Positions 435 to 48,770 of a stretch of 64,000 nucleotides of DNA are shown piece by piece (the stretch's first letter is position 1; the number at the start of each line of letters is the position of its first letter). The position numbers and the translations under genes are program-made. The stretch is from positions 32,001-96,000 of IMG/VR virus record IMGVR_UViG_3300045988_105285. One strand, given 5' to 3'. This stretch comes from a virus. The notes under the pieces were generated by a model. It did not search any database. It was not told the DNA's origin and saw nothing but the letters and a program-made list of their open reading frames with translations.

Positions 435-455
435 CAGTTTTACGTGTGTCTCACG
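435..455 (-). promoter_or_regulatory. conserved leader motif copy 1 (hairpin + AAAACTG)
   Basis: Minus-strand RNA reads CGTGAGACACACG-TAAAACTG. Stem is CGTG/CACG with loop AGACA. Confidence 0.55.
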
Positions 456-472
456 TTCTAAATTTATATTGT

Positions 473-493
473 AAGGGGATTTCATATCCCCTT
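473..493. terminator. hairpin downstream of ORF 502..723 (weak terminator candidate)
   Basis: aaggggat-ttca-tatcccctt is an 8-bp inverted repeat. There is no strong U-run on the minus strand. Confidence 0.35.
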
Positions 494-501
494 TGTTGTT
501 C

Positions 502-723
502 TTACTTCAAAACTCGATAAGTTTTATCGAAATCATTAAAACTCTTCAAGTAACCTTTCTCTGTCAAAGAGTTTAAAATTTCTTTCAACTCATCCTTGGT
601 ATTATCCAAATCGAAATCATACAAATCTTCAAAAGTAAAGTACTTGTTACCTCCGATTACATCAGCCATCACTCCGATGTTGCCATAAACCATTGTCTCT
701 TTCTTACTCAATCTAGTATTCAT
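502..723 (-). CDS. hypothetical protein (73 aa), first gene behind promoter/leader module A
   Basis: ATG lies 10 nt after leader motif copy 2. No recognisable domain. Confidence 0.6.
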   Translation of the reverse strand: MNTRLSKKETMVYGNIGVMADVIGGNKYFTFEDLYDFDLDNTKDELKEILNSLTEKGYLKSFNDFDKTYRVLK

Positions 724-732
724 AACGAATCA

Positions 733-755
733 CAGTTTTTACGGTGTGTCTCACC
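733..755 (-). promoter_or_regulatory. conserved leader motif copy 2
   Basis: Minus-strand RNA reads GGTGAGACACACC-GTAAAAACTG. Confidence 0.6.
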
Positions 756-785
756 TTTTTAATTAGTAACCTTGTTTCTTAATTA

Positions 786-845
786 CGATGCAAAGATACA
801 AAGAATATTCGAAATATGCAAACTATTTAATGTGTTTCTTTTATA
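786..845 (-). promoter_or_regulatory. Bacteroidota-type promoter module A (-7 box at 791..798, -33 TTTG at 819..822)
   Basis: Minus strand reads TTTGCATATTTCGAATATTCTTTGTATCTTTGCA, matching TTTG / TAnnTTTG. By eye about 93% identical to 28831..28890. Confidence 0.65.
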
Positions 846-877
846 TTTTAACGCTTATTATATGTGTAGGCACGAAA

Positions 878-1348
878 TTAACTTTCTGTAGCAGAAAAAG
901 CCAAAGAATCCACCATTTCGTTATACATATTACCTCTATGAGCCTTAACCCAATGGTATCTTATCACCTTGCCTTTCGCTACCTTATTATATATAGGCTG
1001 TAAGTCTCCTAACTTGCAAGCCTGTATTCTCTCTATAGCCACTTGGCAATCCACATATACATCAACAGAACACAAAGGAGGGCAATCACCCAATGCTTGA
1101 ATGACCGCCCTTATTTCGGCTCTCACCGAATCGTTCACTTTGGCTGTGATAAATGTATATTTCCCACTATTGATAATCGCTCCCTTATGAAGCACAAGCC
1201 AACCGCAACCACACTTGTTGTTCTTACTAGAGCCATCAGCATACACTTCATAGCGCACACCTTTATCCTCATCAACAATCATCTGAGCAACAACCTCCAA
1301 AGAGTCATTGCTCATCACATTGGCTATTTGCTTGGCTTTCTTCTTCAT
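878..1348 (-). CDS. RNase H-like protein (RNase HI family)
   Basis: DEDD-type pattern: VYADGSS, RAEIRAVIQAL, VYVDCQ, HWVKAHRGN..NEMVDSLA. Confidence 0.75.
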   Translation of the reverse strand: MKKKAKQIANVMSNDSLEVVAQMIVDEDKGVRYEVYADGSSKNNKCGCGWLVLHKGAIINSGKYTFITAKVNDSVRAEIRAVIQALGDCPPLCSVDVYVDCQVAIERIQACKLGDLQPIYNKVAKGKVIRYHWVKAHRGNMYNEMVDSLAFSATES

Positions 1349-1354
1349 AAGCGA

Positions 1355-2409: not shown

Positions 2410-2429
2410 ATTATATATCAATATTACTA

Positions 2430-2452
2430 CAGTTGTTCTAGTGTGTCTCACC
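2430..2452 (-). promoter_or_regulatory. conserved leader motif copy 3 (overlaps the last codons of the upstream CDS)
   Basis: Minus-strand RNA reads GGTGAGACACAC-TAGAACAACTG. The TAG within it is the stop of ORF 2438..3277. Confidence 0.5.
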
Positions 2453-3277
2453 GCTTGCAAACATATCTCCTTGACTAGATGGCTTGTAACCGATGATTTC
2501 CAACACCTCCCCAAACTTGTTGTCATACCACTTTGGAATGGTTTGTCCAGGCACATCCTTGTAGATGTCATTCAAAGCATACTCCAATCCTTTCTCTGTG
2601 ACGGAATAGTACTTGTGAACCTTGCCGTGCGCACCCTTTCGGGTCTTCTCTTCCAATAAGCCAGCAGCCAATGCCAGCTTATTGAACTTGATGGCTGATA
2701 ACTCAACACCACGTTCTTTCAATAATTCACTGACTGCGTGCGAAGCACCATTCGGAGCGTGGACGTAATCGGGAACCGGAACACCATAAGGCTCTGCTAT
2801 CTGACTCACCAACTGCAAGCGTGCGGCATCACTATATCGCAACGAGTCCATTACCCAATTAGCAACCGTCAACTTGTCTTGCAAGAAACTTTGCTGAGGC
2901 TTCATTTGCTCGGCTTGCACCTGCTCACGATGCTTAATTTCCAACTCCTCCCAACGCAAAACCAACTTCGCTCTTGCCTCATCATTAAACTTGGTGGCAA
3001 TGTAAAGACTCTCACGTTTGGTAAGGGAATAGCAAGGTCTAGTCTCTCCCTTTTGGTCTTGGTAATTAACGAGCTTAAAACCTAGCCCGTTAACCTTTAT
3101 CCACGCAGCCTCCATCTTACGAATAGACTGCATAACATTCTTATGCAACTTATTTGTCATAGTTGCAATTTCCAACGAGGTGATTCTTTCTTCTCCATCA
3201 CCTGTCATACCAGATTTCACAATACCCGATGGGAACACTGGCGGATTCACCATCATTCGGTTTACATTTTCTGTCAT
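2438..3277 (-). CDS. phage regulatory protein / antirepressor (Rha-like N-terminus, KilAC/ANT-like C-terminus)
   Basis: N-terminus ITSLEIATMTNKLHKNVMQSIRKME...TRPCYSLTKRESLYIATKF is Rha-like. C-terminus SELLKERGVELSAIKFNKLALAAGLLE...YSVTEKGLEY is ANT-like. Confidence 0.7.
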   Translation of the reverse strand: MTENVNRMMVNPPVFPSGIVKSGMTGDGEERITSLEIATMTNKLHKNVMQSIRKMEAAWIKVNGLGFKLVNYQDQKGETRPCYSLTKRESLYIATKFNDEARAKLVLRWEELEIKHREQVQAEQMKPQQSFLQDKLTVANWVMDSLRYSDAARLQLVSQIAEPYGVPVPDYVHAPNGASHAVSELLKERGVELSAIKFNKLALAAGLLEEKTRKGAHGKVHKYYSVTEKGLEYALNDIYKDVPGQTIPKWYDNKFGEVLEIIGYKPSSQGDMFASGETH

Positions 3278-3520: not shown

Positions 3521-3698
3521 ATATAATTTTTTCTAACTTGCAAACGCTTTAGTGTTTTATTCAAAACGTTAACGTTTGTTTTGCTTTGGAGGACTTCTGT
3601 CTTCACCAGCACGACCAATTCTTATGGCACTTTTCTGCACATTACTTCTTCTTTCCATTGCTCACGGAATTTAATAGTTAAACTTCAAAGATAATGTG

Positions 3699-3721
3699 CA
3701 GTTGCTCGGGTGTGCCTCACC
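3699..3721 (-). promoter_or_regulatory. conserved leader motif copy 4
   Basis: Minus-strand RNA reads GGTGAGGCACACC-CGAGCAACTG. Confidence 0.5.
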
Positions 3722-3731
3722 TTATATATTG

Positions 3732-4031
3732 TTACGCTACCATTAATAGCATTTCTTTTGATTGCATCTGAATCCATTGGCAAGCATCCTTTCGGAAAAA
3801 GATGTCAGAATCGAACCGCTTGCCATCCACGATAATGTGACTACAATTGCATTCGAACTTATGGTTTCGGGTCAATGGTATCAAAAGGTATGTATCACCC
3901 TCTTTCTTGTCGTACACAAGCGTCAAATCCGTGCCGATAACCTGTGATACCACCTTGTGCTCATCTGAGCTTAAAACACCAATCTTGCCATCATGCTCAA
4001 CATAAAGAGCATCCATCAAATTCTTATCCAT
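3732..4031 (-). CDS. hypothetical protein, member of a 3-copy paralog family
   Basis: The ORF track starts at 4103, but leader motif 5 lies inside that extension, so the likely start is MDKNLMDALYVEH at 4031. It shares YLL(I/V)PLT(R/K)NH.F....VDG..(F/I).S.IFFRKD with 18194..18502, and the LVPLTK.H.F...VDGE.I.S core with 48335..48679. Confidence 0.6.
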   Translation of the reverse strand: MDKNLMDALYVEHDGKIGVLSSDEHKVVSQVIGTDLTLVYDKKEGDTYLLIPLTRNHKFECNCSHIIVDGKRFDSDIFFRKDACQWIQMQSKEMLLMVA

Positions 4032-4064
4032 ATCTCTTAAATATTTAATGTTCAAAGTCCGGTG

Positions 4065-4085
4065 CAGTTTAGCGTGTGCCTCACG
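4065..4085 (-). promoter_or_regulatory. conserved leader motif copy 5
   Basis: Minus-strand RNA reads CGTGAGGCACACG-CTAAACTG. Confidence 0.5.
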
Positions 4086-4092
4086 AAATCTA

Positions 4093-4425: not shown

Positions 4426-4761
4426 TTAAGCAACTCTAATCAAGTTGTAGTTCTTGAATTGTCTCCACTCGCCCTTGACTTCATCCCAATACTTTGTGCA
4501 GTCCTTGCAAGCGTAACCCTTGCCGTTTGGAGTGTAGTCAATATGACTCTCCATCAAAGTGCCGAAAGCCTGACGAATCTCACCATTCATTTTCTGAAAG
4601 TAGAACTCAACGACCTGCTTCTTCATGCGAGCCTTCAGTTTGATAACCTGCCAAGCTTGCTTCAAGCATTCTGCCCAACTCATATAAGCACCTTTAAGCT
4701 GAAAGGCTCTGTGTGCCATATTCATCACTTCTCTCATCATATTCTTAAATGTAGTAGCCAT
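4426..4761 (-). CDS. hypothetical protein, paralog of 19137..19475
   Basis: Alignable by eye over its full length to 19137..19475 (MSW.ECLKQAWQV.KL...VVEF.F.KMNGE.RQAFGTL..SHIDYTPNG). Confidence 0.65.
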   Translation of the reverse strand: MATTFKNMMREVMNMAHRAFQLKGAYMSWAECLKQAWQVIKLKARMKKQVVEFYFQKMNGEIRQAFGTLMESHIDYTPNGKGYACKDCTKYWDEVKGEWRQFKNYNLIRVA

Positions 4762-4795
4762 AATCTTTCAATTTTAAACGTTAAACTTAAATTAC

Positions 4796-4978
4796 TTACT
4801 TTGCAAGTCCGATGCTCTCACGCAAGAAGCTCTTAGCCTCATCGTTGTTCATATTGAGCTTTATTGTTATCATATTCAACATTCTATCAACATCTTTTTG
4901 GGTGTTCATTCTGTTGCTTACGAACTCTATCATAACGAACTTCTGAATCAAGTTTCTTCTTATCATTGAAGTAATCAT
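4796..4978 (-). CDS. hypothetical protein (60 aa)
   Basis: First ORF behind promoter 5070..5077 and the variant leader hairpin. Confidence 0.45.
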   Translation of the reverse strand: MITSMIRRNLIQKFVMIEFVSNRMNTQKDVDRMLNMITIKLNMNNDEAKSFLRESIGLAK

Positions 4979-4987
4979 ATTGCTATA

Positions 4988-5010
4988 CCGTTTTACGAGT
5001 GCCGACTCGG
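4988..5010 (-). promoter_or_regulatory. variant leader hairpin (identical to 19485..19507)
   Basis: Minus-strand RNA reads CCGAGTCGGCACTCGTAAAACGG. Stem is CGAGT/ACTCG with loop CGGC. Confidence 0.5.
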
Positions 5011-5069
5011 AGGTGCAACCTCAGCTAAATTAATAATGTTATTGTGACCTTTGTTTCTTAATCACGATG

Positions 5070-5077
5070 CAAAGATA
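5070..5077 (-). promoter_or_regulatory. -7 box (TATCTTTG), leftward promoter of divergent switch region 1
   Basis: Plus strand reads caaagata. Confidence 0.55.
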
Positions 5078-5078
5078 C

Positions 5079-5192
5079 TAAGTTTTATCCTAACTGCCAA
5101 ATATTTTATTAAGTTTTATCCTAACTTTAACCTTTGTTTGCTGATTTAATATACAAATTAAGATATGTTTGCATAGTTAGGTTAAAAACTTA
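5079..5192. promoter_or_regulatory. operator-like repeats (two direct copies, one inverted) between divergent promoters
   Basis: TAAGTTTTATCCTAACT occurs at 5079..5095 and 5110..5126. An inverted, degenerate copy agttaggttaaaaactta lies at 5175..5192. Confidence 0.5.
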
Positions 5193-5231
5193 GTTTTTCA
5201 TAATAAGTTTGGCTGTTTGCGAAAATATTTG

Positions 5232-5239
5232 TATCTTTG
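5232..5239 (+). promoter_or_regulatory. -7 box (TATCTTTG), rightward promoter of switch region 1
   Basis: gtatctttgca lies about 43 nt upstream of the ATG at 5282. Confidence 0.55.
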
Positions 5240-5281
5240 CAACATCAATAAATAAAGTTAGAACTTAATATATAATAAGGT

Positions 5282-5587
5282 ATGGATATACGAGGCATAA
5301 TTAAACGAAAAGGCTTTACGCTAACGTATGTAGCGGATAGGCTGACTAATAAAAAAGGTGGTAAGGGAGTATCTTTGCCATCCTTGATACAAACTATTGA
5401 TGGGAATCCGACTGTCGCTAGTCTTCAGGAGATAGCAAGCATTATAGGTGTAACGCTTGCAGAACTAGTTTCCGAAGCTGATAGTTCTGATTTCATCGCC
5501 CTAATAAAACAAGGTGGTGAGTTGTATTCCGCATCGTCCATTGCTGAGGCTAGGGACGTGCTGGACAAGTTGGAATGTGTTAAGTAA
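5282..5587 (+). CDS. XRE-family HTH transcriptional regulator (repressor candidate)
   Basis: Contains IKRKGFTLTYVADRL...SLPSLIQTIDGNPTVASLQEIASIIGVTLAELV. It is divergent from the leftward operon. Confidence 0.7.
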   Translation: MDIRGIIKRKGFTLTYVADRLTNKKGGKGVSLPSLIQTIDGNPTVASLQEIASIIGVTLAELVSEADSSDFIALIKQGGELYSASSIAEARDVLDKLECVK

Positions 5588-6082: not shown

Positions 6083-6117
6083 AAGAGGAGCGCATCATAC
6101 GTTCCTCTTCTTTGTTT
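6083..6117. terminator. bidirectional intrinsic terminator between convergent genes
   Basis: Stem aagagga/tcctctt is flanked by an A-run and a T-run. Confidence 0.55.
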
Positions 6118-9100
6118 ACAATCTACTCATCTTGTCTTTTAATTCGTGAATATCATTGAATGCTTGCAGCATAGGCTTATGCCATCGCTCTTGTCGCTCA
6201 TCAATCGACTGCAAGTACATCAAGCTTTGTGCAAGGATAGTCCTACCCTCATCAACCGCTAACCAAATGTTACCTACATTACCCATAATAGTATTCACGC
6301 TAGCCGTTAATAAGCTACCCTCTGTACCACCATCACGAGCCGCAATAGCATCCAACTTGGTATTTATGAGCTTTGCTTCCTCATACGTTCCCTCTGTGGC
6401 GATCTGCACCGCAGTGAAACGACCATTCAACTCTTCTCCTGTATCTTGGCTCATTGATTCAAAAGAACCGGAAGAAGCGGACTGCTCGTAAGATTGCTTG
6501 TAACCCGTAATATCAGCAATATTATCACGAATAGCCAAACCCTCTTGAACTATCTTGTCATACTCTTCTTTAAGATTATTCAATTCGGTTGGCGTGAGCT
6601 GCCTTCCTCCATTCTCCTTCATCTTGTTTGCCCAGCTCTCATAAAGAGGCTTAAGCTTTTTATTCATAAGGTCTCCCAAAGCGAAGTTAAGCATCGACTG
6701 GTTGAGCATTGTAGTGAAGTCATTAGAAAAATCCTTTGCAGACTTACTCATATCCATAAGATTGTTTATGAAGTCACTCTTCATCGAATCAAAGGTTGTT
6801 TGAGTCAAATTCTCATTGATTTGCTCCGTCAACTCCTCTAGTTTTCCCGCCAGTTCTGTATATTGCTCCCAATATTCCGTCTTATCATACTTACCTTGGT
6901 CGGTCATGTTCTTCCATACATCCGCATTATGTGTACGAATGTCAGCCATCTGCTCTGGAGTGAGCTTATATATATCCTCCAAGGAATTAACCTTGTTTAT
7001 CGAAGAATTGGTATAACCGCCTCTGACTGCCGATTGCTGTGCCAAAGTCTTATTGATTGCCGCATAATCTTGTGCAGAAAGATTCCAATAATAAGCATTT
7101 GAATGGTGTGCCCCATGATACCCCATCTGTGTTTTGAGAATATCCATCGTTTGGGTATTAACCTGCTTTTGGGCATCATAAGCAGCATTATAATTGCTGA
7201 CTGCCGTATAACCGGAAGACTTGTCGATAGAATCCTTTAACTTATCAATAGAATACATCAATCTGTCATTGCTCTCGGTCAGCTCTTCTGTTTTCTTCGC
7301 AACTTCTGCACCATTACCTCCGCCAATACCGAACATCTTGCCCAACGAGCCAATGGTTTTTATTCCATTCATAGCCGCACCTATGTAGTTTCCGCTTGCA
7401 AAATCAGAAAAGGCTTGTGTTCCACTGTTCAATGCATCCATTCCGTTATTCACGGCTTTACCAAAGCCTGTGTTTCCGAGACCCAAAGCATCGACTAACC
7501 CAGGAAGGTCTTTCAGCTTCTCTTGGATTTTCCTCAAGCCTTCAGCCCATTCCTCTATAGTATCATGCAAGCTCTTCTTTGCAGCATCCTGCTTTACCTT
7601 GGCTTCTTCCTGTGCCTTTCCGACTTCCTTCGTAGCCTTTCCGACCTTAACCTCTGAAACCGCCAAATCATCAAAAAGCTTACGTAACTTCTCCGTTTGG
7701 CTTACACTGAGATTCTTGGTAGAACCCATAAGTTTGTCCTTATTGGCAGAAGTGATATTACTGGTATCTATGTTAACCCCACTTTCAGCAAACACGCCTT
7801 GGATTTTTCTCCTTTGGCTCATATTATCAGCCTTGGCATCAAACTCCCCCTTTCTAGCTTGTGCCAATCGGTCTTGCGCATCCTTCGCCTCATCAATAAG
7901 CCTACGGTGTTCACGGACTGCATCATTAACCAATCCCCATCTATCCTTCTGCTCGGAAATCGCATCATCAATCTTGTAGATTTGGTCAGATACGGTTTTC
8001 ATGTCATCAATTTCCAACGTACCCGAACCAAGCAACTCCTTCATCTTCTTGCGAAGGTCTTCAAGATAAGGAATACTCAATCGGTTCATATCCTGAAAGA
8101 CAACATCCCAATTGATAGAATCCTTGAAATCCGAAAAATTCAACTTCTTCAACTGGTCGCTCATCTCCATTTCCGCACTCGCTGCGCCAAAAGTATCCCC
8201 CTTTTCTCTTGCAAGGTCTATCTTGTCGGCATATTCTTTCAAGATAGCATAACGCTGCTGTTCCAAGCTACCATACTGCTTCATGAAATCCAACATATCC
8301 TTTATCTCCGCTTGCTGGATTTCCTTCAGCTTTAATTGTCTCTGTTTCTCAATCAAGGCAATTTGGTCTTCAGAGTCCTGTCCAATGGTCTTTCCTAGAT
8401 GATTACCTTTGTCGTCAACCATTTGTGTGCCCAATACCTCTTTGCGGTATTCTGCATCGGACTTACCCTGTTTCCACATGCTGGCTTTACGACCTTTTCC
8501 CGAATTTACCCATACGATTTGGTCTTTCTTCTTCTTAGCCTCAACGAGTTTGTCAATCGAATCCTCTATAGCCTTTTTCTCCTTGTCTGAAGCCATGTTG
8601 ATTTGAGCAATCTCCTTTTCGGTCTCATTCTTAATCAATTCCGTTCTTCGCTTTGACAACTCATCGCTAGCTTTCTCCGAATAGGATGAAATAGACTTGG
8701 AATAGTCCTCCTCAGCCTTGCGCTTATTACCAGCCCTTGTCTCGGCATCATTCCTAGCCTTTTCAGCTTCTCTAGCCGATTTTTCTCTTGCCTTCTTCTC
8801 CTTATCTATCTCCTTTTGGCTTTTCTTCGGCTTACTTTCGATGTTGTTACCTCTCGCTTGCATCATAGCTAACTCATTAGCTACCTGTTCGTAAGTTTTC
8901 CATTGTCCTCCGATATTTAAAAAATCCCCCTTCTTGTGTGTATCAAGAAAGTGTTGACGAGCAGCCATACTCGCTTTCAACTGAGACTGAGACATATTCT
9001 TAATCCATGCAGGAAGCTCACTATCATCATAGTTAACTTTAATATCAAGATGCAACTTTCTACTGCACAACTTTATTGTTTCTTGGATTTCACTATTCAA

Positions 9101-12100
9101 ATCCTTGAAGCTCTTCTTTGCATATTGATTTTTCAAAGCTTGTTCCTCTTGCGCATAAGTCAACTTAGATGTGGCTTTTCTCGCACGTTCTGCGGCATTG
9201 ACGCTATTATTTATAGAATCAACAGTACCATCCAACTCAACTTTGTTGCTAACAAGCCCATCAGTAAAGTCATTTATATCAGGAATCATCTGAGCCACCT
9301 CAGAACGGCTATGGTGCATATTTTCGAGATAAGTTCCTATTTTTACATTCAACTCCCCTTGTAATTGAGAATATTGAGCATTCAATGCGTTGTACACCTT
9401 TAAATCTCCACCACAAGCATTCATCTCCTTTCGCAGTTCAGCTAACTTGTCTATGTCATCCTGACTTATGAGACTTCGAATAGTTCCCATTTCTACATCT
9501 GACAACTTGTCGTCAATAGAATCTTTGAATGAACCGAAAGAGGAATCATTTGAAGAATTATAATTATCATAAGCCTCTTGTAATTGATTTGCACGCTCCA
9601 TTTCAAGAGAACGCTTTTCAATAATACCGATAAGTTCTTCTTCATGCGCCTTTAACTCTTTAGCTTGCTCACTCATGCTTTGAGACTTCATTTTAGTCTC
9701 ATCCAATTTTATTCCATATTCTTCATAAGCAGACTTCAATTCATTTATTGTGTCCTTATGGTCTTCTGCATTGCCGTTTTTAAGAACCGCGAACAAGGAA
9801 CGAACCTTATTGCTAGCCTCAGCAGCCTTATTACCCATGTCTTGAGTCTTCTTAGCAACATCTTCCTCACTACTTCCAAACATCGCAAAAACAGACATAG
9901 CGGTTGTTACCAAAGTAAGAATAGTAGTTAGAGGATTTGAAAGCATTGCAGCCCACAACTCCTTCATGCTTACCGTCACGGCATTAGTCGCCCATGTTAA
10001 CACATTTTGAGCTAAGGCTAACCCCTTTGTGCCAACAGATAATATAGATGTAACAAGGGAATTTCGTTCCTTTGCTCCTGTATTCACGTTCTCGGATGCA
10101 GTATTTACATTGGTAGCCGCAGTATTAGCCGTTTTTGAAGTCGAGTTTGCCGAATTAGCAATAGTTTCCGAAGAAGTAGCATTTGCATTAGCACTTTTAG
10201 CGGTTGCATTGCTAGCTTCTGAAGTCGTATTGGCTTGTGTAGCAGTAGTTGCCGCCTCTGTTATACTAATCTTACCATTCTCTATATCAATTCCTTGCTG
10301 AACAATATCCCCAATTTCATCTGCCGCAGCTCCGGTCTCTTTATAGACCTCAGTTTCATACTCTTCAGCTTCTGCTAACTTTTCAGTCGTAGTTTGAAGC
10401 TCCTGTTGGATAGCCTTACGCTTTGCGTTAGAACTTTCGTATTCCTCATCCGCTTGCTGACGCTTTTGTATCAGCTCTTCCAATTTCGCTTGTTCAGCCT
10501 CGTATTGAACTATTGAACTATTTTCGTTATCCGAAAAAGAATCCTCATAGCCACCAAATGAAGTCGTATCAACCGCCCCATTATCATAGACCAATTCCTT
10601 TTCTTTCTGCTCTATGATTTGCTGCTGCTTTTTTATTTCCTCATCAAGCTGAGCAAGGACTACTCTCTTTTCACGAGCCTCATCCATCGCTTTGTCGTAA
10701 CTCTCTTGCTGCAAATCTACTTTCTTCTGTAAGGCGTTAGTTTCCAAAAGAGCCTTACCATAAGCGGTTTCATTTGCCTTGGCTATTTTTTGTTTAAGGT
10801 CAGCCTCAGCCTTTGCTTGTTCCGCAGCCTTATTTGCAGCAGCAATGTCGGCTTCTTGCGATCTTTTTGCACGCAACTCTTCTTCTGCGGCTTCCTTGGC
10901 ATTTACCGCATTTTGCCATTGGAGTTGTTCTTTCTCCGCAAGTCTTGTCTGCTCAACCAAGAGGTCACGCTTCAACTGGAGTTGTTTAGCCATTTCTTCA
11001 CTAATCAACCCCTCAGATTTCGCTAATTCTATCTGCTTAGATATGCGTTTCTCCGTTTCATCATCACCGATATTTTCGGTATCGGACAAAGCATTCCCCA
11101 ACTCATTATAACGGCTTGCCTTATAATCTTTTGTATCTTTTCCGTTAAGATGTCGGTAATCATTTTCCATTTCCTTGAACTGAGCCATTTTCTCATCAAG
11201 TCCCTTGGAAAGTTCCAAAGCCTCCATCTGTTCCTTAGCAGCAGATTGTTGCTGAGTGACAAGCATATCACGTTTAAGTTGCAATTGCTCTGCCATTTGT
11301 TGGGTAATGATGCCATCGGTCTGAGCCTCCTTAATTTTAAGAGATACAAGTTCCTCAGCCTTATCCGTACCCAACATATCGGTATTAGCTACCGCCTTAT
11401 TCAAATCCGAAAGTCTTTGGCTCTTATATTCTGAAGTATCTTTTCCGGTATAGGAATGGTATAATTCGGCTTCATCTTTGTACGCTTTTATTTTTTCGTC
11501 AAGATTACTTGCAATACCATCAAGTGTAGCTTGGTTCTGAGCTTTTTGAATGGATGCTGCCGCCATCAATCCAGCTTTGTAAGTTCCAACCATAACAGCT
11601 GCACTTCCTATCGTTTTAACCAAAGTCTGCCAATTATCAACCAAAGACGAAATCAAATCTAAGCCTGTGCCAAATATTCCTTGTGACTTCTTGCCAAGTT
11701 CGTTAAACATCTGGTCAACGCTATCGCCTATGTTAGACCATTTGCCTTGCAAGGTTGTGGATTGTTTTTCCATCAGTCCGCCAAACTTGCCGCCCTCTTC
11801 GGTCATGTTGATGATAGCTTTCTTCACCAAATCAGCCCCAACCTTTCCATCGGTAACCGCTTGCTGAACCTCTTGGGTTGTCTTGCCCATGATTTTGCCA
11901 AGCTCCTCAGCCATCGGGATGCCCCTGCCCATAAACTGACGCAAGTCCATCGTGTACATGCGGCCTTGGCTCATTGTCGTACCATACAAATACACCAAAT
12001 CGTTCAACGGAACGTTCAGACCTGCCGAAATATCTCCAAGATGAACAAGAATATCATTAACCTCATTTGCAGCCGTACCATAAGCCAACAACTGCTTTGC

Positions 12101-13124: not shown

Positions 13125-13529
13125 TCAAATCACGACAGCCTGTAATTCTTTTGAAATTCCATGTAAGCAATCAAGAATTTGCTGCTTACGTTTTTTGCTA
13201 GGCTCATGGATTCCCATTGCATACTGACGCATCAGAGAAGCATTAATGCCAGCTTTCTTTGCGACACCATTTATATTCAGATATGAAAAATAATCGAAGA
13301 AAGAACCTATATCATACCGGAACTCAAACACCAATTCAGGCATTTGTTTTCCCTCTTCTTCAAGAAGCTCTTTAATCTCTTCCTTTGCTACAAAAATATC
13401 ATCCATCGCTTGTTTTGCAGAGTTGCCAAATCCGACTAGATGGAAGTCTGGAAATTTATCCACCATATAGCAAGAAAAATTCTTTTCTTCTTTACACTTT
13501 TCTACTTGTATAATTACCTTTGTTGCCAT
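13125..13529 (-). CDS. hicB: HicB-family antitoxin
   Basis: N-terminal HicB/UPF0150-like fold pattern. C-terminal HTH (NINGVAKKAGINASLMRQYAMGIHEPS). It sits immediately downstream of hicA. Confidence 0.75.
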   Translation of the reverse strand: MATKVIIQVEKCKEEKNFSCYMVDKFPDFHLVGFGNSAKQAMDDIFVAKEEIKELLEEEGKQMPELVFEFRYDIGSFFDYFSYLNINGVAKKAGINASLMRQYAMGIHEPSKKRKQQILDCLHGISKELQAVVI

Positions 13530-13606: not shown

Positions 13607-13795
13607 TTAAAGCCCAAGCAATCTTTCAAGAATACTGTCGTAAGTCTTTCGAGAAACTTCACGACTGCCGTGCCGTGGCACTGGACATTTAAGTTTTGTT
13701 GTTGGACTAAACCAAATGTCGTGATTACCACCATGCCGAACCACATAGCAACCTGCTTGGGTCAGCTTTCTCACTAATTGACTAGTCTTCATCAT
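13607..13795 (-). CDS. hicA: HicA-family mRNA interferase toxin
   Basis: 62 aa with LVRKLTQAGCYVVRHGGNHDIW...CPVPRHGSREVSRKTYDSIL, matching the HicA pattern (G.H...... VP.H...E....T...IL). Confidence 0.8.
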   Translation of the reverse strand: MMKTSQLVRKLTQAGCYVVRHGGNHDIWFSPTTKLKCPVPRHGSREVSRKTYDSILERLLGL

Positions 13796-14513: not shown

Positions 14514-14541
14514 TTTTATTCTCCTTTTATTAAACTTTTTG

Positions 14542-33842: not shown

Positions 33843-33871
33843 TTAAATTAGTAACATTTGTTTCTTAATCA

Positions 33872-34030: not shown

Positions 34031-34047
34031 AACGTGTGCCTCACGCT
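34031..34047 (-). promoter_or_regulatory. leader-type hairpin copy 11 (no AACTG immediately after)
   Basis: Minus-strand RNA reads AGCGTGAGGCACACGTT. The TGA within it is the stop of ORF 34041..34202. Confidence 0.4.
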
Positions 34048-34202
34048 TTGTAATTTTTGCATCTTGCAGCGATTTCTGTCAGTCGCTTCCCCTTTACTTC
34101 CACTGTGCTACCCTTCTTGCATTTCAAAACATTTCCTGTGCTAGTATTTAGTATTCCCAAGAAATGGATACAACAAAAACAACTTCTAAAATTCTTATCC
34201 AT
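34041..34202 (-). CDS. small Cys-rich protein (53 aa)
   Basis: The likely start is MDKNFRSCFCCIHFLG. Confidence 0.4.
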   Translation of the reverse strand: MDKNFRSCFCCIHFLGILNTSTGNVLKCKKGSTVEVKGKRLTEIAARCKNYKA

Positions 34203-39767: not shown

Positions 39768-39787
39768 ATCAACCTCCTTTTTGAGTG

Positions 39788-39795
39788 CAAAGGTA
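39788..39795 (-). promoter_or_regulatory. -7 box (TACCTTTG)
   Basis: Plus strand reads caaaggta. Confidence 0.45.
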
Positions 39796-39971
39796 CAAAT
39801 TATATTATATATGGCATAAAAAGAGCCATTTGGGTTATTTCCAAAACCCGAATAAGTGAAAAACTAGCCATTTCCTGTTAACGAATGTAATCAAGCCTAC
39901 TATTATATCCAATAAAAGTTAATGCAAAGAAAATAGCTTGATTTTTTATTGCATATTTCAAATATTCTTTG

Positions 39972-39979
39972 TATCTTTG
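39972..39979 (+). promoter_or_regulatory. -7 box (TATCTTTG) of the plus-strand operon starting at 40060
   Basis: Plus strand reads gtatctttgca. Confidence 0.55.
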
Positions 39980-39992
39980 CATTAGAAATAGA

Positions 39993-40018
39993 AAGGTGAG
40001 ACACACCTTCAGAAACTG
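39993..40018 (+). promoter_or_regulatory. conserved leader motif copy 12 (plus strand)
   Basis: AAGGTGAGACACACCTT-CAGAAACTG. Confidence 0.6.
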
Positions 40019-40059
40019 TATTATTAACAATTAAGCCCTATCGCATCACGGCAAGCGAA

Positions 40060-43618: not shown

Positions 43619-43751
43619 ATCATTAATATATAATAATGTGAAAATAATCATACCGGATAACTACACAATTAATTTTTGTGCAAATAATCAAATTTTTCTT
43701 TAAACTAAGTTATAACACATTAAAATATTTGCTCTATCAATAAAATCTCAT

Positions 43752-43759
43752 TACCTTTG
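43752..43759 (+). promoter_or_regulatory. -7 box (TACCTTTG)
   Basis: Plus strand reads ttacctttgca. Confidence 0.5.
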
Positions 43760-43767
43760 CAAATACA

Positions 43768-43792
43768 GGTGAGTCACACCATAAAAAAACTG
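43768..43792 (+). promoter_or_regulatory. conserved leader motif copy 13 (plus strand)
   Basis: GGTGAGTCACACC-ATAAAAAAACTG. Confidence 0.55.
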
Positions 43793-43799
43793 AATAAAA

Positions 43800-44441
43800 A
43801 TGAAGATAATAGAACAAGATACAATAGACATCATTAAGGCGCACGTAAATGAGCGACCAAGATATAAGTTGGCACAGAGAATGGGTGTCAGCGTAAAATT
43901 CCTATATAAGATATTGCACGAATGCGATTGTAATTTTGAGCACAAAAGATTTGTTCCACAACCCAACAGGAAACGTGATGAACAAATCATAAATCTCTAT
44001 CCTAACCATTCGGTCAAAGAGATTGCCGAGATTGTAGGGTGTCATCCATCTACAGTATGAAAGGCGGCAAAAAGACTAAAGCTTACTCATTCGAAAGAAA
44101 CTATCGAAAGACTTAAAAAGAATAGTTTGGCAAACTTAAAGAAAGCGTATGAGAAAGCAATAATAAATAAGAGGGTAAAAAGTTGGAAAAGAACTATGCG
44201 TGCAGAAAAGCTCAGATTTATGTCCTGCATTCCGCAGAAAACGAATCTTAGATTTTCAGAGTTACCTGCAAAAGCATATCACGCCAAATACAATCTCATT
44301 ACGAAACATGGGTATTTCGGTTTTGAAGGCGAACCTTATATCTTGGGTTATGACCGGAATACTCGTAGGATGGATGAGGAATACTATAAGAACAAATATG
44401 GATTTTCTTTTGAGGAGGACGAAGAATGCCAAGAAGATTGA
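43800..44441 (+). pseudogene. double-HTH protein, paralog of 44426..45043, interrupted by an in-frame TGA at 44058..44060
   Basis: ORFs 43800..44060 and 44127..44441 share one frame with no other stop between them. Similarity to the paralog continues across the TGA (HPSTV*KAAKRLKLTHSKET vs IPQSTILGQVSKLGLKHNAET). Confidence 0.6.
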
Positions 44442-46651: not shown

Positions 46652-47170
46652 ATGTTTCAAGGACTTCGACCTAACAGCATATTCTATGTGCTTGACAAGG
46701 GTGAAAACCCAAGTCTCAAAATCGGACAGGTTGTGTCGGTCAGTAACCCACAACCTAAGTTCCCAACATATACTCCTGGGCAATTCAACCCACAACCAAT
46801 GGAGACTACCGTTGATGTTGTCGTGAAATTGCCGAATGAGCAAATGGAGTTCAAACAACTCCCATCCAATATGCAAATCGCAAACTCAGAGAACCTCGTG
46901 GTTTCTGAAAGTCGTGAAGCCATGGATGCAGAAGTTGAGGCTATGTATCGGCATTCTAAGGAGATTGTGGAAAGCGAGTCATACCACAAAAAGGTTATGG
47001 AAGAGTGCGCAAAGATGCGTGCCATCTTGAATCCACAAATAGCCAAAGACAGACAACAGGAAGAAGACATCAACAACCTCAAAAGCGAGGTTAGCGGAAT
47101 GAAGGGAACTTTGACCGATATTAAGTCTATGTTGTCAGTGGCTTTGGAAAAAGTTAATACGAAAAAGTAA
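46652..47170 (+). CDS. hypothetical protein with a C-terminal coiled-coil (172 aa)
   Basis: ORF track entry in operon context. Confidence 0.55.
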   Translation: MFQGLRPNSIFYVLDKGENPSLKIGQVVSVSNPQPKFPTYTPGQFNPQPMETTVDVVVKLPNEQMEFKQLPSNMQIANSENLVVSESREAMDAEVEAMYRHSKEIVESESYHKKVMEECAKMRAILNPQIAKDRQQEEDINNLKSEVSGMKGTLTDIKSMLSVALEKVNTKK

Positions 47171-47176
47171 ATCATT

Positions 47177-47413
47177 ATGGGATACATGATAGAAATTACC
47201 GAAAACAAGGTAAATGAAATGTCAGAACTTGTAGAGAAGATGCTTAAGTATGGTGGTAAACTCATGCACTGCATTGATGAAATGGGGGATGACAAGTATG
47301 GACGAATGGGTCACAGAAACCCAATGCCGGATTACCGAGACAATTGGGATGACGATGAAGACCGCTATGGTGAAAGACATGGTGGTCGCAGAGGTGGCGG
47401 TTATCGCTATTAG
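47177..47413 (+). CDS. hypothetical protein with an Asp/Arg/Gly-rich tail (78 aa)
   Basis: C-terminus reads DDDEDRYGERHGGRRGGGYRY. Confidence 0.5.
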   Translation: MGYMIEITENKVNEMSELVEKMLKYGGKLMHCIDEMGDDKYGRMGHRNPMPDYRDNWDDDEDRYGERHGGRRGGGYRY

Positions 47414-47464
47414 TATTACACTTTGAGGTGGGGAGAAATCTCCACCTCCTTAAAAATTTCAGTT

Positions 47465-47893
47465 ATGGGAAGATACAAAATACCACTTGATGCATACGAC
47501 ATGAAGCCCGAAGGAATGATTGCATACCTTCGCTATAATGGATGGCACTTCAATAAAAAGATGTGTGATTGGGCTATCACCTTAATGCGCAAGACAAACG
47601 CAACGACAGGCAAGTTAGAAAGAGTAGAACCTACAGAAAAAGACACTGTGGAGGAACTCCTTAAAGTCAACAACGTAAAGTTGGAGAATGCTGACAATTA
47701 CGATTTTGTCTATGTCGCAAACATGGCTAGAGCCGATTTCTTTAAGTCCTCTTTAAAGGATGAAGCTGCTTTGGCTCAATTTATTAAGGATATGGTGGAT
47801 GACCCAGACCAAGAGGATGGATTCATTTTCAATAGATTTTATGCAGATTGCAACCATAACGGTATCGGCATACCATGGGATGATGTATTATGA
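47465..47893 (+). CDS. hypothetical protein (142 aa)
   Basis: The start is refined to MGRYKIPLD. Hairpin GAGGTGG..CCACCTC occupies the longer ORF-track extension. Confidence 0.55.
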   Translation: MGRYKIPLDAYDMKPEGMIAYLRYNGWHFNKKMCDWAITLMRKTNATTGKLERVEPTEKDTVEELLKVNNVKLENADNYDFVYVANMARADFFKSSLKDEAALAQFIKDMVDDPDQEDGFIFNRFYADCNHNGIGIPWDDVL

Positions 47894-48258
47894 TTAAACA
47901 AGAAATTTACTTAGAGAAATATGATTGGAATGTGATTGTATGTCATGTTGTTAATCAAGAAGAGGTTGATGAGGCTATAGATGTACTAAGTTCCATTGAT
48001 TGTAAAGGGCAACCATTGCTGGATGCATACGACCACATCTCAACCAATTCACCAAACAAAGGCTTGACATACACAAATGTTTCAAAGAACACAAGTGTCG
48101 TCCTTATCTGTAAGTCAACATCTGAAGGCGAGTATATAAACAGCCTCACACATGAAATGTTCCATGTAGTTGCACATATATGCAACCATCTGGGAATAGA
48201 CATGCAAGGCGAAGAACCATGCTATCTCATGGGATGGCTTTGCCAGTCTATATTATAG
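47890..48258 (+). CDS. small HExxH-motif protein (putative mini metallopeptidase, 122 aa)
   Basis: SLTHEMFHVVAHI contains HExxH. 4-nt overlap with the upstream gene. Confidence 0.5.
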   Translation: MIKQEIYLEKYDWNVIVCHVVNQEEVDEAIDVLSSIDCKGQPLLDAYDHISTNSPNKGLTYTNVSKNTSVVLICKSTSEGEYINSLTHEMFHVVAHICNHLGIDMQGEEPCYLMGWLCQSIL

Positions 48259-48334
48259 AAGATTTCCTTATAAGTTTAACTTGGCGGGCAGAACTTGGAT
48301 TTTTCCATCTGCCCTCCTATAAAATTACAAGAAT

Positions 48335-48679
48335 ATGAGTTGTTCTAGCATTAAAAATTATCTTTTCGAACGTTATAACGAGGATTACAACGTTCTTTCC
48401 GAGAATGAAAATCGAGTTATCATCACATTTGATGATTCAGACTTGTCTGTACTAGTGAACAAGAAGGAGAATAAAATGTTTATTCTTGTTCCGTTAACTA
48501 AGATGCATTCATTTGAGTTTCATCCAAATTGGCTATTAGTAGATGGAGAACGTATTAATAGCAATTTGTTTTGGCAGGAATGTGGCAACCAAGTAATAGA
48601 GTACCAAGGCGATGCTCCTATGGCGATCAAGGAAGATTCTATTACGAGAATTATTAAAGATTTCATTAAAAACAGATAA
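48335..48679 (+). CDS. hypothetical protein, third member of the 3732/18194 paralog family
   Basis: MFILVPLTKMHSFEF....LVDGERINSNLFW. Confidence 0.55.
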   Translation: MSCSSIKNYLFERYNEDYNVLSENENRVIITFDDSDLSVLVNKKENKMFILVPLTKMHSFEFHPNWLLVDGERINSNLFWQECGNQVIEYQGDAPMAIKEDSITRIIKDFIKNR

Positions 48680-48727
48680 CGTTTTAAAATTTGCATTAAT
48701 TTATTTGCAAGGCTGTCTTTTTTGTCG

Positions 48728-48735
48728 TATCTTTG
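48728..48735 (+). promoter_or_regulatory. -7 box (TATCTTTG)
   Basis: Plus strand reads gtcgtatctttgca. Confidence 0.5.
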
Positions 48736-48747
48736 CATTATTAAAAA

Positions 48748-48770
48748 GGTGAGACACACCATAACAACTG
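48748..48770 (+). promoter_or_regulatory. conserved leader motif copy 14 (plus strand)
   Basis: GGTGAGACACACC-ATAACAACTG. Confidence 0.55.

Follow-up and report, generated by a model that had tools for sequence, protein, structure and literature searches.

The closest described relatives of the element reported here are the GP20-b and GP20-a motifs (Rfam RF03003 and RF02991), which are uncharacterised. GP20-a, GP20-b, and six unnamed candidate RNAs lie upstream of phage GP20/scaffold genes and are presumed to be cis-regulatory (PMC10690425). The standby site of tisB is composed of a 5′ pseudoknot and a single-stranded stretch; S1 binds H-type pseudoknots, and such pseudoknots bind both S1 and the 30S subunit and are needed for initiation (PMC7708055). 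The MS2 coat operator, the T4 gene 32 leader pseudoknot, and the gp43 and RegA sites place a structure at or just 5′ of a ribosome-binding site, as does the element described here, and these known operators govern initiation on phage mRNAs. RegA controls many mRNAs, and in the gene 32 leader an unstructured A/U-rich stretch comes after the pseudoknot. The preQ1-I riboswitch is a very small H-type pseudoknot, which comprises a short P1, a 2-nt L1, a 3-bp P2, and an A-rich tail, and which adjoins the ribosome-binding site.

The likeness to the GP20 motifs resides in a tandem form of the element that adjoins the upstream side of the DUF4355/Phage_scaffold gene family in gut Caudovirales. This array starts with a GCC-CGNA-GGC hairpin and a UAAAA tail covered by the GP20-b model, with a best GP20-b score of 20.1 bits versus a gathering score of 36.2. 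In the window (the whole 64,000-nt stretch of phage DNA that was analysed), in contrast, the copies are single units located before many unrelated, mostly early-type genes, and none lies before a GP20 gene. The likeness to tisB would reside in a predicted pseudoknot with an adjoining single-stranded stretch upstream of the start codon; the tisB element is a single copy ~100 nt from a structured ribosome-binding site, whereas the phage element recurs on many mRNAs, where it lies 9 nt from a start region without structure.

The motif is real and has no Rfam counterpart. The core GGTGAGNCACACC, allowing up to two mismatches, gives 19 matches at 13 places in the window, compared with 1.70 ± 1.45 in shuffled sequences, and a search of the window, filters off, with a covariance model (CM) derived from 41 diverse copies returns 12 matches at E<0.1. 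These are exactly the copies listed in the sequence-only reading, which had claimed at least 12. The thirteenth core-match place, 3887-3899, is intragenic, lacks the tail, and looks like a chance match. All 12 copies are in sense orientation, i.e. on the strand of the local genes, and no copy among the CM matches lies in the structural block (49.4–64 kb). An Rfam scan of the window and of ten array loci found no family at its gathering score. The features are as follows, with P1 denoting the stem, N the third base of the loop A-G-N-C-A, X the base following the CUG of the tail, and bit scores those of the CM.

431-459, minus strand: motif copy (28.4 bits), P1 ACGUG/CACGU, loop AGACA, tail AAAACUG, X = U; comes after a hairpin (473-493) without a U-tail on the minus strand; an ATG 10 nt past CUG opens a hydrophobic 27-codon ORF (424-341).
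731-759, minus strand: motif copy (42.3 bits), GGUG/CACC, loop AGACA, X = U; ~36 nt downstream of a -7 box that ends at 791; ATG 9 nt past CUG (gene 502-723).
791-827, minus strand: Bacteroidetes-type promoter (TTTG-N-TAnnTTTG) driving the leader with copy 731-759; cassettes of promoter and leader almost identical to this one are found at 28836-28872 and 33877-33913.
2428-2456, minus strand: motif copy (32.6 bits), GGUG/CACU with a G-U pair, loop AGACA, X = U; overlaps the TAG that ends gene 2438-3277, and within 90 nt no ORF of at least 30 codons begins.
3697-3725, minus strand: motif copy (27.7 bits), GGUG/CACC, loop AGGCA, X = C; directly past the stop of gene 3732-4055 and directly upstream of the -7-box-like TATCTTTG.
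4063-4089, minus strand: motif copy (21.4 bits), CGUG/CACG, loop AGGCA, X = C; in-frame TTG 9 nt past CUG (ORF 3732-4055) and ATG 33 nt past it.
4986-5012, minus strand: variant element, CGAGU-CGGC-ACUCG followed by UAAAACGG, scoring under the CM threshold; ORF 4796-4978 follows, then WYL_2 gene 4426-4761.
15343-15371, minus strand: divergent copy (13.9 bits, E = 0.087), AGGUA/UACCU, 7-nt loop AGAGGCA, tail GUAAAACUG, X = C (15342); ATG 30 nt past the tail (gene 14740-15312); upstream lie a promoter (15517-15553) and two terminator-like hairpins.
19483-19509, minus strand: variant element identical to 4986-5012, followed by WYL_2 gene 19137-19475.
28776-28804, minus strand: motif copy (42.9 bits), AUGGUG/CACCAU, loop AGACA, X = U; ORF 28507-28767 starts with a GTG 10 nt past CUG.
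33816-33844, minus strand: motif copy (41.3 bits), AAGGUG/CACCUU, loop AGACA, X = G, the single window copy with N and X unpaired; ATG 6 nt past CUG (gene 33503-33811).
34024-34049, minus strand: degenerate copy (19.6 bits), AGCGUG/CACGUU, loop AGGCA, without an adjoining AACUG tail.
39991-40020, plus strand: motif copy (26.8 bits), AAGGUG/CACCUU, loop AGACA, tail CAGAAACUG, X = U; stem begins ~13 nt past a -7 box; ATG 41 nt past CUG.
43723-43759, plus strand: Bacteroidetes-type promoter directly upstream of copy 43764; a similar promoter lies at 48699-48735 and a TTG variant at ~39948-39979.
43764-43793, plus strand: motif copy (28.9 bits), GGUG/CACC, loop AGUCA, X = A (U-A pair); stem begins 8 nt past the -7 box; ATG 7 nt past CUG (gene 43800-44060).
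48744-48772, plus strand: motif copy (39.4 bits), GGUG/CACC, loop AGACA, X = U; stem begins ~12 nt past the -7 box; ATG 62 nt past CUG (PNK3P-domain gene 48833-49342).

The stem variants GGTG/CACC, CGTG/CACG, and GGTA/TACC, on which the sequence-only reading had based a paired element, are all found in the window. For units chosen solely by G-AGACA-C plus an AACTG tail, the P1 covariation score is 0.468, versus 0.159 in shuffles (0 of 500 as high) and at most 0.18 in slid controls. At pairs 2–4, G-U occurs 11 times and A-C 3 times, while the outer core pair in the Bacteroidota set is GC in 51, CG in 6, and GU in 2 cases and is never unpaired. Because covariation is strong in distant relatives and G-U exceeds A-C, P1 is, on comparative evidence, a genuine sense-strand RNA helix, and the earlier claim, in its RNA version, of a paired element separate from the promoter is supported by the covariation, the G-U wobbles, and the strict sense orientation. 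The same observations make a role at the DNA level (an operator, an alternative-sigma promoter, or a single-strand initiation signal) extremely improbable, even though GGTG-N5-CACC makes the core a partial palindrome, copy 3697 occupies the position expected of a -33 element for the next promoter, and no host-type promoter separates some copies from the terminator-like hairpins that precede them. Orientation is strict, G-U pairs are tolerated but A-C is rare, stems of 3–5 bp are free to vary in sequence, and stem-to-tail spacing is variable; moreover, tandem units lie 25 nt apart with a Shine-Dalgarno site directly after, which leaves no room for a start site.

The loop N-C-A is complementary to the U-G-X that ends the A-rich tail. 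The C-A of the loop and the U-G of the tail are invariant and mutually complementary, and N and X are associated when tallied as family-states: N = A goes with X = U in 30/37 (Fisher p = 3e-5 for A-U), N = G with X = C in 8/24 and X = U in 9/24 (p = 9e-4 for G-C), and N = U with X = A in 7/17 and X = G in 3/17 (p = 0.016 for U-A), although part of this association could stem from the descent of two cassette lineages, ...CUGUA and ...CUGCA. An N-X pair is possible in 10/11 window copies (permutation p = 0.0014). These data suggest a second helix, P2, which is new in the present analysis, and a compact pseudoknot of the H type whose third loop is A-rich. P2 is short and weak (2–3 bp), with the third pair present in ~60–80% of families, and we infer that it forms in vivo. 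The earlier description as a paired hairpin holds for the RNA but is incomplete: AACTG, which is conserved, probably supplies the pseudoknot's second strand.

The predicted architecture, with a short P1, a 2-nt L1, and a loop that pairs with the end of an A-rich tail, is that of preQ1-I. Size and topology fit the smallest riboswitch class known, and AUAAAAACUG, the tail, is similar to that of preQ1-I. A ligand-sensing pseudoknot (P1, short L1, 3-bp P2, A-rich L3 ending ACU-), whose ligand-stabilised fold would gate the A-rich initiation zone, would be consistent with a marginal P2, as in ligand-dependent pseudoknots, with the existence of tandem units, and with an occurrence in two phyla that would require no protein partner. 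It is nonetheless distinctly unlikely: P2 abuts P1, leaving no L2 for the ligand-pairing base (a cytosine in preQ1-I), the P2 sequence differs, the preQ1 Rfam models give no match even at E up to 10, and the downstream genes show neither a link to queuosine nor any metabolic theme. Twelve copies in one phage before unrelated genes are, in addition, unlike any known riboswitch.

The position of the element follows start codons rather than promoters. The tail CUG lies 6–12 nt from the start codon, with a mode of 9–10 nt, in ~30/36 unrelated downstream gene families, and both variant hairpins (4988-5010 and 19485-19507, present as earlier stated and identical to each other) have an ATG exactly 9 nt past ACGG. 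The stretch from tail to start codon is predicted to be unpaired. The distance from the -7 box to the stem, by contrast, is variable as earlier stated, at 5–41 nt. As also noted before, copies occur between genes and across stops: the copy at 2430 overlaps a TAG, and those at 3699 and 4065 come after stop codons. There is one copy per cistron, with copy pairs 300–440 nt apart within one operon. In ~15–20% of copies the next long ORF is >40 nt away (39991 and 48744), and copy 2428, which has no following ORF, and copy 3697, which sits before a promoter, are exceptions to the start spacing.

This spacing bears on processive antitermination, in which RNA polymerase would read through terminators after acquiring a factor from a nascent nut- or put-like hairpin, or through direct action of that hairpin. 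Many leader copies lie just past strong early-type promoters, terminator-like hairpins occur inside the same operons, and the element shares with the lambda/P22 nut sites (boxA and boxB) a small leader hairpin and a pentaloop with a free third base. The third base of the P22 boxB pentaloop is likewise variable. However, boxA-like matches are at chance level (26 found versus 25 expected) and none adjoins a copy, the loop does not resemble GNRA, the A-rich tail is predicted to pair back to it, and several copies a few hundred nucleotides apart occur in one operon, spaced by start codons. At 15343 and at loci L137, L233, and L127, moreover, the terminator-like hairpins come before the copies and not after them, and the window yielded no NusG, KOW, N-like, or Q-like protein. 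The nut-like function suggested in the sequence-only reading is therefore poorly supported and very doubtful.

The intercistronic, one-per-cistron placement would also fit an endonuclease site, consisting of a single-stranded A-rich stretch ending in G beside a structure, or a folded block to 5′-to-3′ decay; both would leave each cistron as a stable, translatable mRNA beginning just upstream of its ribosome-binding site. Phage 5′ stabilisers, and RNase Y cleavage after G in A/U-rich RNA, are known in Firmicutes. Some copies lie at the extreme 5′ end of a transcript, 8–13 nt past the -7 box, and tandem copies precede a gene needing abundant mRNA, just past terminator-like hairpins. Yet a stabiliser needs no narrow 9–10 nt start spacing, signals for RNase E, Y, or J are not expected to keep a loop sequence invariant, and a stem of 4–6 bp with a predicted energy of ~-4.5 kcal/mol is a poor exonuclease block unless the pseudoknot forms; we consider this explanation unlikely.

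Translational control, one of three functions proposed earlier, is the best fit of the three, since the element is distributed cistron by cistron and lies 6–12 nt from start codons. A role in the start of translation is most likely, and our leading, still tentative reading is a modular cis-acting RNA element acting on translation initiation of the following cistron. P1 would bear the loop A-G-N-C-A, whose N-C-A would pair with the U-G-X closing the tail, so that the A-rich third loop would run along the minor groove of P1. The mRNAs of Bacteroidetes have no Shine-Dalgarno site and are rich in A at -3, -6, and -11 to -15 (PMC7366714). In Bacteroidota the element's 3′ edge lies ~9 nt upstream of the start codon, so that its A-run falls at about -13 to -18 and overlaps the adenine-rich zone (-11 to -15) used instead of a Shine-Dalgarno site. 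The most likely mechanism is that the folded element offers the 30S subunit a platform for docking or standby, with S1 as a possible partner, and would keep the ribosome beside an otherwise unstructured start region. Expression of mobile genes would thereby be largely freed from sequence context and host Shine-Dalgarno use, and the effect would be multiplied where units are arrayed in tandem ahead of scaffold genes. We infer the ribosome or S1 as partner and activation, rather than gating, as the effect. Counting against the platform view, S1 proteins of Firmicutes are generally thought not to serve as ribosomal S1. Initiation in bacteria without Shine-Dalgarno sites is the poorly understood step to which the motif most likely relates.

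The window comes from a Bacteroidales phage, and hundreds of related gut mobile elements also have the motif. Its carriers include many phage contigs and integrated elements of Bacteroidota, and Shine-Dalgarno-using phages in Clostridia-assigned bins, where 2–4 tandem units precede the scaffold gene. In the latter phages the unit adjoins the Shine-Dalgarno site and CUG lies ~10–25 nt from AUG, which indicates that a fixed stereochemical 30S contact is not conserved across hosts.

This distribution also bears on an operator for a sequence-specific RNA-binding protein, which would repress or activate translation by hindering or aiding 30S binding beside the ribosome-binding site. MS2 coat protein, T4 RegA and gp43, and P22 scaffold autoregulation are precedents. 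In Shine-Dalgarno-using phages the scaffold protein might itself be the binder, and in the window phage a late or early protein could switch a regulon of at least 12 cistrons. The element adjoins the ribosome-binding site in both host types, and stems vary but the closing G-C pair and the loop positions A, G, C, and A hardly do; a sequence-specific protein could be the alternative cause of the near-invariant A-G, whereas the conserved C-A and U-G are accounted for by P2 pairing, with no protein needed. The array in Shine-Dalgarno-using phages occurs solely before the scaffold gene, and eight or more distinct RNA motifs have been reported ahead of this gene family (PMC10690425), a pattern typical of autoregulated genes. 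The window also has two Sm-like WYL_2 proteins, each downstream of a variant hairpin. Unlike the known phage operators, the element is common to unrelated mobile elements of two phyla and has no cognate protein identified: in the fragments compared, no protein of the window had a detectable counterpart at the integrated-element loci or at those of the Shine-Dalgarno-using phages, and ORF 25190-25459, earlier named as a candidate, has no Pfam match and no link to the motif. As ~38 unrelated gene families, spread over two phyla and over both phages and integrated elements, have the unit in front of them, a single cognate mobile-element protein is hard to picture, and an operator is rather unlikely. 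The earlier notion of a phage-specific factor is weakened accordingly, the unit being present in unrelated integrated elements and in phages of a second phylum.

Single sites can also be followed in other contigs. The site orthologous to copy 3697-3725 is kept in >30 contigs, among which the tail length differs, and the variant-element sequence of 4986-5012 occurs in six distinct contexts in relatives.

The motif, a short hairpin (P1, loop A-G-N-C-A) followed by an A-rich tail ending in AACTG, is genuine and has solid statistical backing. At up to two mismatches, GGTGAGNCACACC is found at 13 places (19 strand-matches) in the window, as compared with 1.7 ± 1.45 in shuffles. A covariance model based on 41 diverse copies and run on the entire window with filters off (E<0.1) matches 12 sites, which are exactly the canonical copies listed in the sequence-only reading, where a count of at least 12 had been given. 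Nine copies lie on the minus strand (1–39.8 kb) and three on the plus strand (39.9–49.4 kb), in each case the local gene strand, and the structural block at 49.4–64 kb holds no copy matched by the model. The second hairpin type described in the same reading at 4988–5010 and 19485–19507 (CGAGU-CGGC-ACUCG) is likewise genuine, the two variants being identical in sequence to one another.

The window derives from a large tailed Bacteroidales phage. Its products include an SPP1-type portal (Pfam) and the following two tail proteins:

6116–12943, minus strand, tape-measure protein, 2275 aa
53155–62100, minus strand, tail-associated protein, 2981 aa

The Bacteroidetes promoter consensus TTTG-N(17–23)-TAnnTTTG occurs between genes of the window, its closest public records (~92% identity) are 'Bacteriophage sp.' contigs without annotation from human faeces, and the window contains no tRNA genes and no Rfam family at gathering score. 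Strong Shine-Dalgarno-like sequences (AAAGGAGG, AAGGAGG and AAAGGAG, at 39768–39790, 27884–27900 and 14514–14530, minus strand) are positioned 5–8 nt ahead of three start codons, which is unexpected beside Bacteroidetes-type promoters, the phylum normally doing without Shine-Dalgarno pairing.

A pattern scan of IMG/VR returned at least 115 loci, drawn from many gut contigs of 60–126 kb and with diverse leaders and downstream genes. Among species-representative genomes, matches in GC-rich organisms are mostly chance matches in coding sequence, and low-GC matches are mobile elements; specifically, three copies in Bacteroidales and Rikenellaceae precede ArdC, DUF6876 and a small ORF, a Chitinophagaceae copy lies beside an integrase, further low-GC loci in Prevotella and Phocaeicola are prophage-like, and phages binned with Emergencia and Lachnospiraceae carry tandem arrays. 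Scanning viral contigs for three G-AGACA-C cores revealed Shine-Dalgarno-using phages with tandem arrays of 2–4 units each. The units are confined to the array in 26 array loci, and the ORF downstream has an FDYEKLA-type N-terminus in all 14 array loci examined; the ORF of one of them (L127) weakly resembles DUF4355 and Phage_scaffold (formerly 'GP20'), at an E-value of ~0.007, which falls short of the Pfam cut-off. In INPHARED, the sole carriers are five 'Bacteriophage sp.' records without annotation, all from human faeces; none of its cultured phages has the motif, and PLSDB plasmids give no match to it. In one related locus binned with Lachnospiraceae (L174), a skipping-rope RNA (RF02924, 380–475, plus strand, 44.1 bits, over the gathering score) precedes the tandem array by ~200 nt.

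P1 almost certainly forms a hairpin. In Bacteroidota copies, the three inner pairs (GUG/CAC) are invariant and are uninformative on pairing because they never vary. The outer core pair is GC in 51, CG in 6 and GU in 2 of 59 distinct Bacteroidota sequences and is never unpaired, and a 5′ C is accompanied by a 3′ G in 17 of 17 distinct contexts. The stems of the arrays include GGG/CCC, GAG/CUC, AGG/CCU, CGG/CCG, UGGG/CCCA, CCCGG/CCGGG, CGGUG/CACUG and others. For units chosen solely by closing pair, loop and AACTG tail, the covariation score is 0.468, versus 0.159 ± 0.028 for shuffled units (0 of 500 as high) and at most 0.18 for slid partners. Furthermore, pairs 2–4 include 11 G-U as against 3 A-C or C-A combinations, and this excess indicates a helix in the sense-strand transcript rather than in duplex DNA or on the antisense strand; we give almost no credence to a site that acts at the DNA level. 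Covariation and G-U pairs thus bear out the paired RNA element proposed from the sequence, a proposal that was nonetheless incomplete in having missed the probable pairing of the tail. Predicted MFE folds of the leaders retain the hairpin, although it is weak (~−4.5 kcal/mol for 4 bp), and leave the stretch from tail to start codon unpaired.

The tail can pair with the loop. The invariant loop C-A is complementary to the invariant tail U-G, and the variable loop base N is positioned opposite X, the base after the tail CUG. In the window, N/X is A/U in six copies, G/C in three, U/A in one and A/G in one, so that 10 of 11 are pairable (permutation p = 0.0014); even the divergent copy 15343 (copies are named by their window start) obeys the rule, with a loop ending in GGCA and C at X. 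To lessen the effect of shared descent, contexts were clustered into families by downstream sequence, and the analysis was redone after two more scans in which N was fixed and X was free.

Base X for each loop base N, by family-state
N = A: X = U in 30 of 37 family-states; Fisher p = 3e-5
N = G: X = C in 8 and U in 9 of 24 family-states; Fisher p = 9e-4
N = U: X = A in 7 and G in 3 of 17 family-states; Fisher p = 0.016

The family-state set contains no case of N = A with X = C. G-C and A-U states occur within one family and G-C and U-A states within another, both being putative double changes taken from the clustering output rather than from the sequences themselves. By distinct rows, N-X is a standard pair in 31 of 58, with five pair types. 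The implied fold, which we regard as reasonably probable, is an H-type pseudoknot with P1 of 4–6 bp, L1 formed by A-G, P2 formed by N-C-A and U-G-X, no L2, and an A-rich L3 of 5–9 nt. P2 is short, its third pair being missing in 20–40% of families, and the N-X association could stem in part from two cassette lineages.

The H-type topology implied for the motif is also found in the preQ1-I aptamer and in luteoviral frameshift pseudoknots. With preQ1-I (RF00522) the motif shares the H-type architecture with an A-rich L3 and a P2 made of loop and tail, but the likeness ends there. The preQ1-I model gives no match at gathering threshold, nor does it match a 161-nt leader even at E up to 10; the preQ1-I L2 contains a ligand-pairing C, whereas in the motif L2 is zero and the 5′ strand of P2 abuts the 3′ strand of P1; and preQ1-I is linked to queuosine genes, to which the genes downstream of the motif are unrelated. 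We consider ligand sensing improbable.

The stem lies anywhere between 5 and 41 nt from the −7 box, a spread that rules out the motif as a fixed-distance part of the Bacteroidetes sigma-A promoter (−33 TTTG / −7 TAnnTTTG) and agrees with the sequence-only reading, which had placed the motif outside the promoter. In 60 of 150 distinct contexts there is no −7 box within 100 nt, and these copies follow stop codons or terminator-like hairpins. The G of CUG lies 6–12 nt (mode 9–10) from the start codon in ~30 of 36 unrelated downstream protein families. Specifically, the spacing is 10, 9, 9 (TTG), 10 (GTG), 6 and 7 nt for six window copies; at both variant hairpins it is exactly 9 nt. The rule fails for five window copies: no ORF follows copy 2428, copy 3697 is placed ahead of a −7 box, and copies 15343, 39991 and 48744 lie 30, 41 and 62 nt from the start, respectively. 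With a spacing of 9–10 nt, the A-run falls at about −13 to −18; in Bacteroidetes mRNAs, which have no Shine-Dalgarno sequences, A is enriched at −3, −6 and −11 to −15 (PMC7366714). In most arrays of the Shine-Dalgarno-using phages, the CUG of the last unit is followed by a Shine-Dalgarno site within 0–5 nt. The motif is a sense-strand structured RNA module, placed per cistron and as near the ribosome-binding region as possible, and it is portable, occurring before unrelated genes, in different kinds of mobile element and in two phyla.

Several leaders of the window have further features. A 27-codon hydrophobic ORF (MKKVFTIENALAFLFALEIVSLIYFLG, 341–424, minus strand) begins 10 nt past copy 431–459 and is probably a genuine small membrane peptide overlooked by ORF length cut-offs, since its start region is kept in at least 15 related contexts. 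At 15372–15553 (minus strand), a consensus promoter (15517–15553) leads into two terminator-like hairpins, namely GAAGUC-UUCG-GACUU with a U-run and then a 13-bp stem with a long loop and UUUUGUUUUG; copy 15343 and gene 14740–15312 come only after them, an arrangement reminiscent of a late promoter under read-through control. Another hairpin conserved among leaders (GUAA/GUGA - UUAAGAAACAAGG - UUAC/UCAC) occurs at 772, 5051, 28817 and 33858 (minus strand), with compensatory stem changes, directly after the predicted transcription start of a repeated promoter cassette; a related form is present at 19545 and about 13830. The promoter-plus-leader cassette (~95 nt) is fully repeated at 791, 28836 and 33877 and partially at 5070 and 39948.

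Bacteroidota translation proceeds without Shine-Dalgarno pairing, and the choice of start site is only partly understood. Tentatively, we favour the reading that the motif acts on translation initiation, and translational control was the best supported of the functions proposed from the sequence. In the preferred form of this reading, the motif would fold into a platform on which the 30S subunit docks or stands by, beside an unstructured A-rich start region and with S1 as a likely contact. S1 binds H-type pseudoknots, and the tisB standby site combines a 5′ pseudoknot with a single-stranded stretch (PMC7708055); by analogy, such S1-binding standby pseudoknots would be comparable to the motif in architecture and position. 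Against initiation stand the differing distances to AUG in the two host types and a minority of copies far from any start codon. A processing or stability element is rather unlikely to be the explanation. The more specific proposal that a portable pseudoknot of ~25–30 nt recruits or gates the ribosome without Shine-Dalgarno pairing, cistron by cistron in Bacteroidota mobile elements and in tandem ahead of scaffold genes in Shine-Dalgarno-using phages of Clostridia-assigned bins, is doubtful; if true, bacteria would have in the motif an equivalent of a minimal internal ribosome-entry or standby module, or else the motif would rank as the smallest switch of riboswitch type so far.

An operator for a sequence-specific protein, possibly with scaffold autoregulation in the Shine-Dalgarno-using phages, is unlikely. 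In tblastn searches of all window proteins against the sequence fragments of all loci, none was common to the integrated-element or Shine-Dalgarno-using phage loci, and the basic ORF 25190–25459, put forward earlier as a candidate cognate protein, has no Pfam match. The relatives of the WYL_2 protein in the best 80 IMG/VR loci are 97–100% identical, as against ~92% for DNA of the nearest public phage records, and because of this identity they are silent on co-occurrence with the motif. If the motif is an operator or processing signal instead, 12 or more cistrons still form a regulon marked by it in an abundant uncultured human-gut phage group.

Antitermination through a nut-like element, the least supported of the functions proposed from the sequence, is very improbable. 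The motif does contain a hairpin, but degenerate matches to boxA (CGCUCUUA / UGYUCUUURAMAA type) number 26 versus 25.2 expected, none adjoins a copy, and the 5′ flank is A-rich. The boxB pentaloop is GNRA-like (GAAAA, GAAGA, GACAA), whereas the motif loop is A-G-N-C-A in all copies. Moreover, a nut site occurs once per early operon, upstream of the terminators that are overridden, whereas motif copies occur many to an operon, 300–440 nt apart within a single one, and some lie downstream of terminator-like hairpins, contrary to the nut layout. Pfam detects no antiterminator family among 100 window ORFs, N proteins being small and poorly modelled and the window being part of a genome.

Other candidates were rejected on individual grounds. 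An intrinsic terminator does not fit a hairpin followed by an A-run, a hairpin with a T-run being found on the antisense strand alone (3708–3722, plus strand); mimicry of Shine-Dalgarno or anti-Shine-Dalgarno sequences by the stem arms does not fit stems that vary freely; and complementarity to 16S rRNA (E. coli sequence) comprises short, chance-sized matches alone. A CRISPR-repeat mimic was dropped for want of spacers separating tandem units, and a start-stop mini-ORF (CUG-UAA) since a stop follows CUG in just 31 of 103 contexts. A hairpin-stabilised transcriptional pause has plausible spacing in canonical copies, though not in those with a CG stem, and a primase or single-strand initiation signal would leave the spacing to start codons unexplained. 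Type III antitoxin repeats, hammerhead or pistol ribozyme cores and loop-loop kissing were likewise weighed against the sequence and dropped.

The motif itself is absent from Rfam, and its closest relatives are uncharacterised. Ten array loci gave no family at gathering threshold, no DUF2693 RNA family was detected beside the WYL_2 genes, and the sole match in relaxed E-value Rfam scans of leaders was sub-threshold, to GP20-b (RF03003), whose top score is 20.1 bits (locus L233) versus a gathering score of 36.2 and covers the hairpin ahead of the array; GP20-b has no match in the window or in the ten array loci. Ahead of each array in L237, L263, L268, L292, L319 and other related loci, a U-run is followed by a G(C/U)C-CGAA-G(G/A)C hairpin with (A/G)UAAACUA, which constitutes a fourth, differently looped unit partly recognised by the GP20-b model. 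A 2023 survey reported GP20-a, GP20-b and six unnamed candidate RNAs of unknown function upstream of GP20 genes (PMC10690425), and the tandem array may be one of these candidates. In the relatives, the tandem arrays are directly followed by a GP20/scaffold gene, and this is true of 0 of the 12 window copies. Literature searches with the core sequence and related terms returned no description of the motif, or of its single-unit, many-copy Bacteroidota form. Through the motif, the uncharacterised leader motifs before phage scaffold (GP20) genes are joined to a much wider family and gain a defined repeat unit and fold. Short, highly conserved and structured, the motif lies ~9 nt before the starts of dozens of unrelated mobile genes; it therefore offers a concrete experimental handle on initiation in Bacteroidota, and it could be used as a portable expression part in gut Bacteroides.

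Other genes of the window and its relatives were also noted. A predicted 418-aa protein (23581–24837, minus strand) combines an RRXRR domain (E=3.6e-60) with an HNH domain, which by sequence is the architecture of IscB-type RNA-guided nucleases. The ~360 nt ahead of this gene (24838–25190) are GC-richer and without a convincing ORF and could encode its guide (omega) RNA; the segment has no Rfam match and a fold z-score of merely −1.66. A TnpB/OrfB-like ORF of 378 aa occurs in six related loci (L026, L032, L054, L062, L069 and L070), with a motif copy 16 nt before its start codon; considered alongside the IscB-like gene, this suggests that genes for RNA-guided nucleases are mobile among these phages. 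Two paralogous modules (4426–5587 and 19137–20058) each carry a Cro/CI-type HTH gene on the plus strand and, divergently on the opposite strand, a WYL_2 gene (DUF2693, Sm-like SH3 barrel) together with a promoter and the variant hairpin. Three ~100-aa paralogues (3732–4055, 18194–18502 and 48335–48679) have the common motif LL(I/V)PLT(R/K)NH.F, no Pfam match, and homologues in 17 related loci, and the first of them is flanked by motif copies upstream and directly downstream. Finally, a HicA toxin-domain ORF (13607–13795, minus strand) is followed by its likely HicB partner (13125–13529, minus strand).
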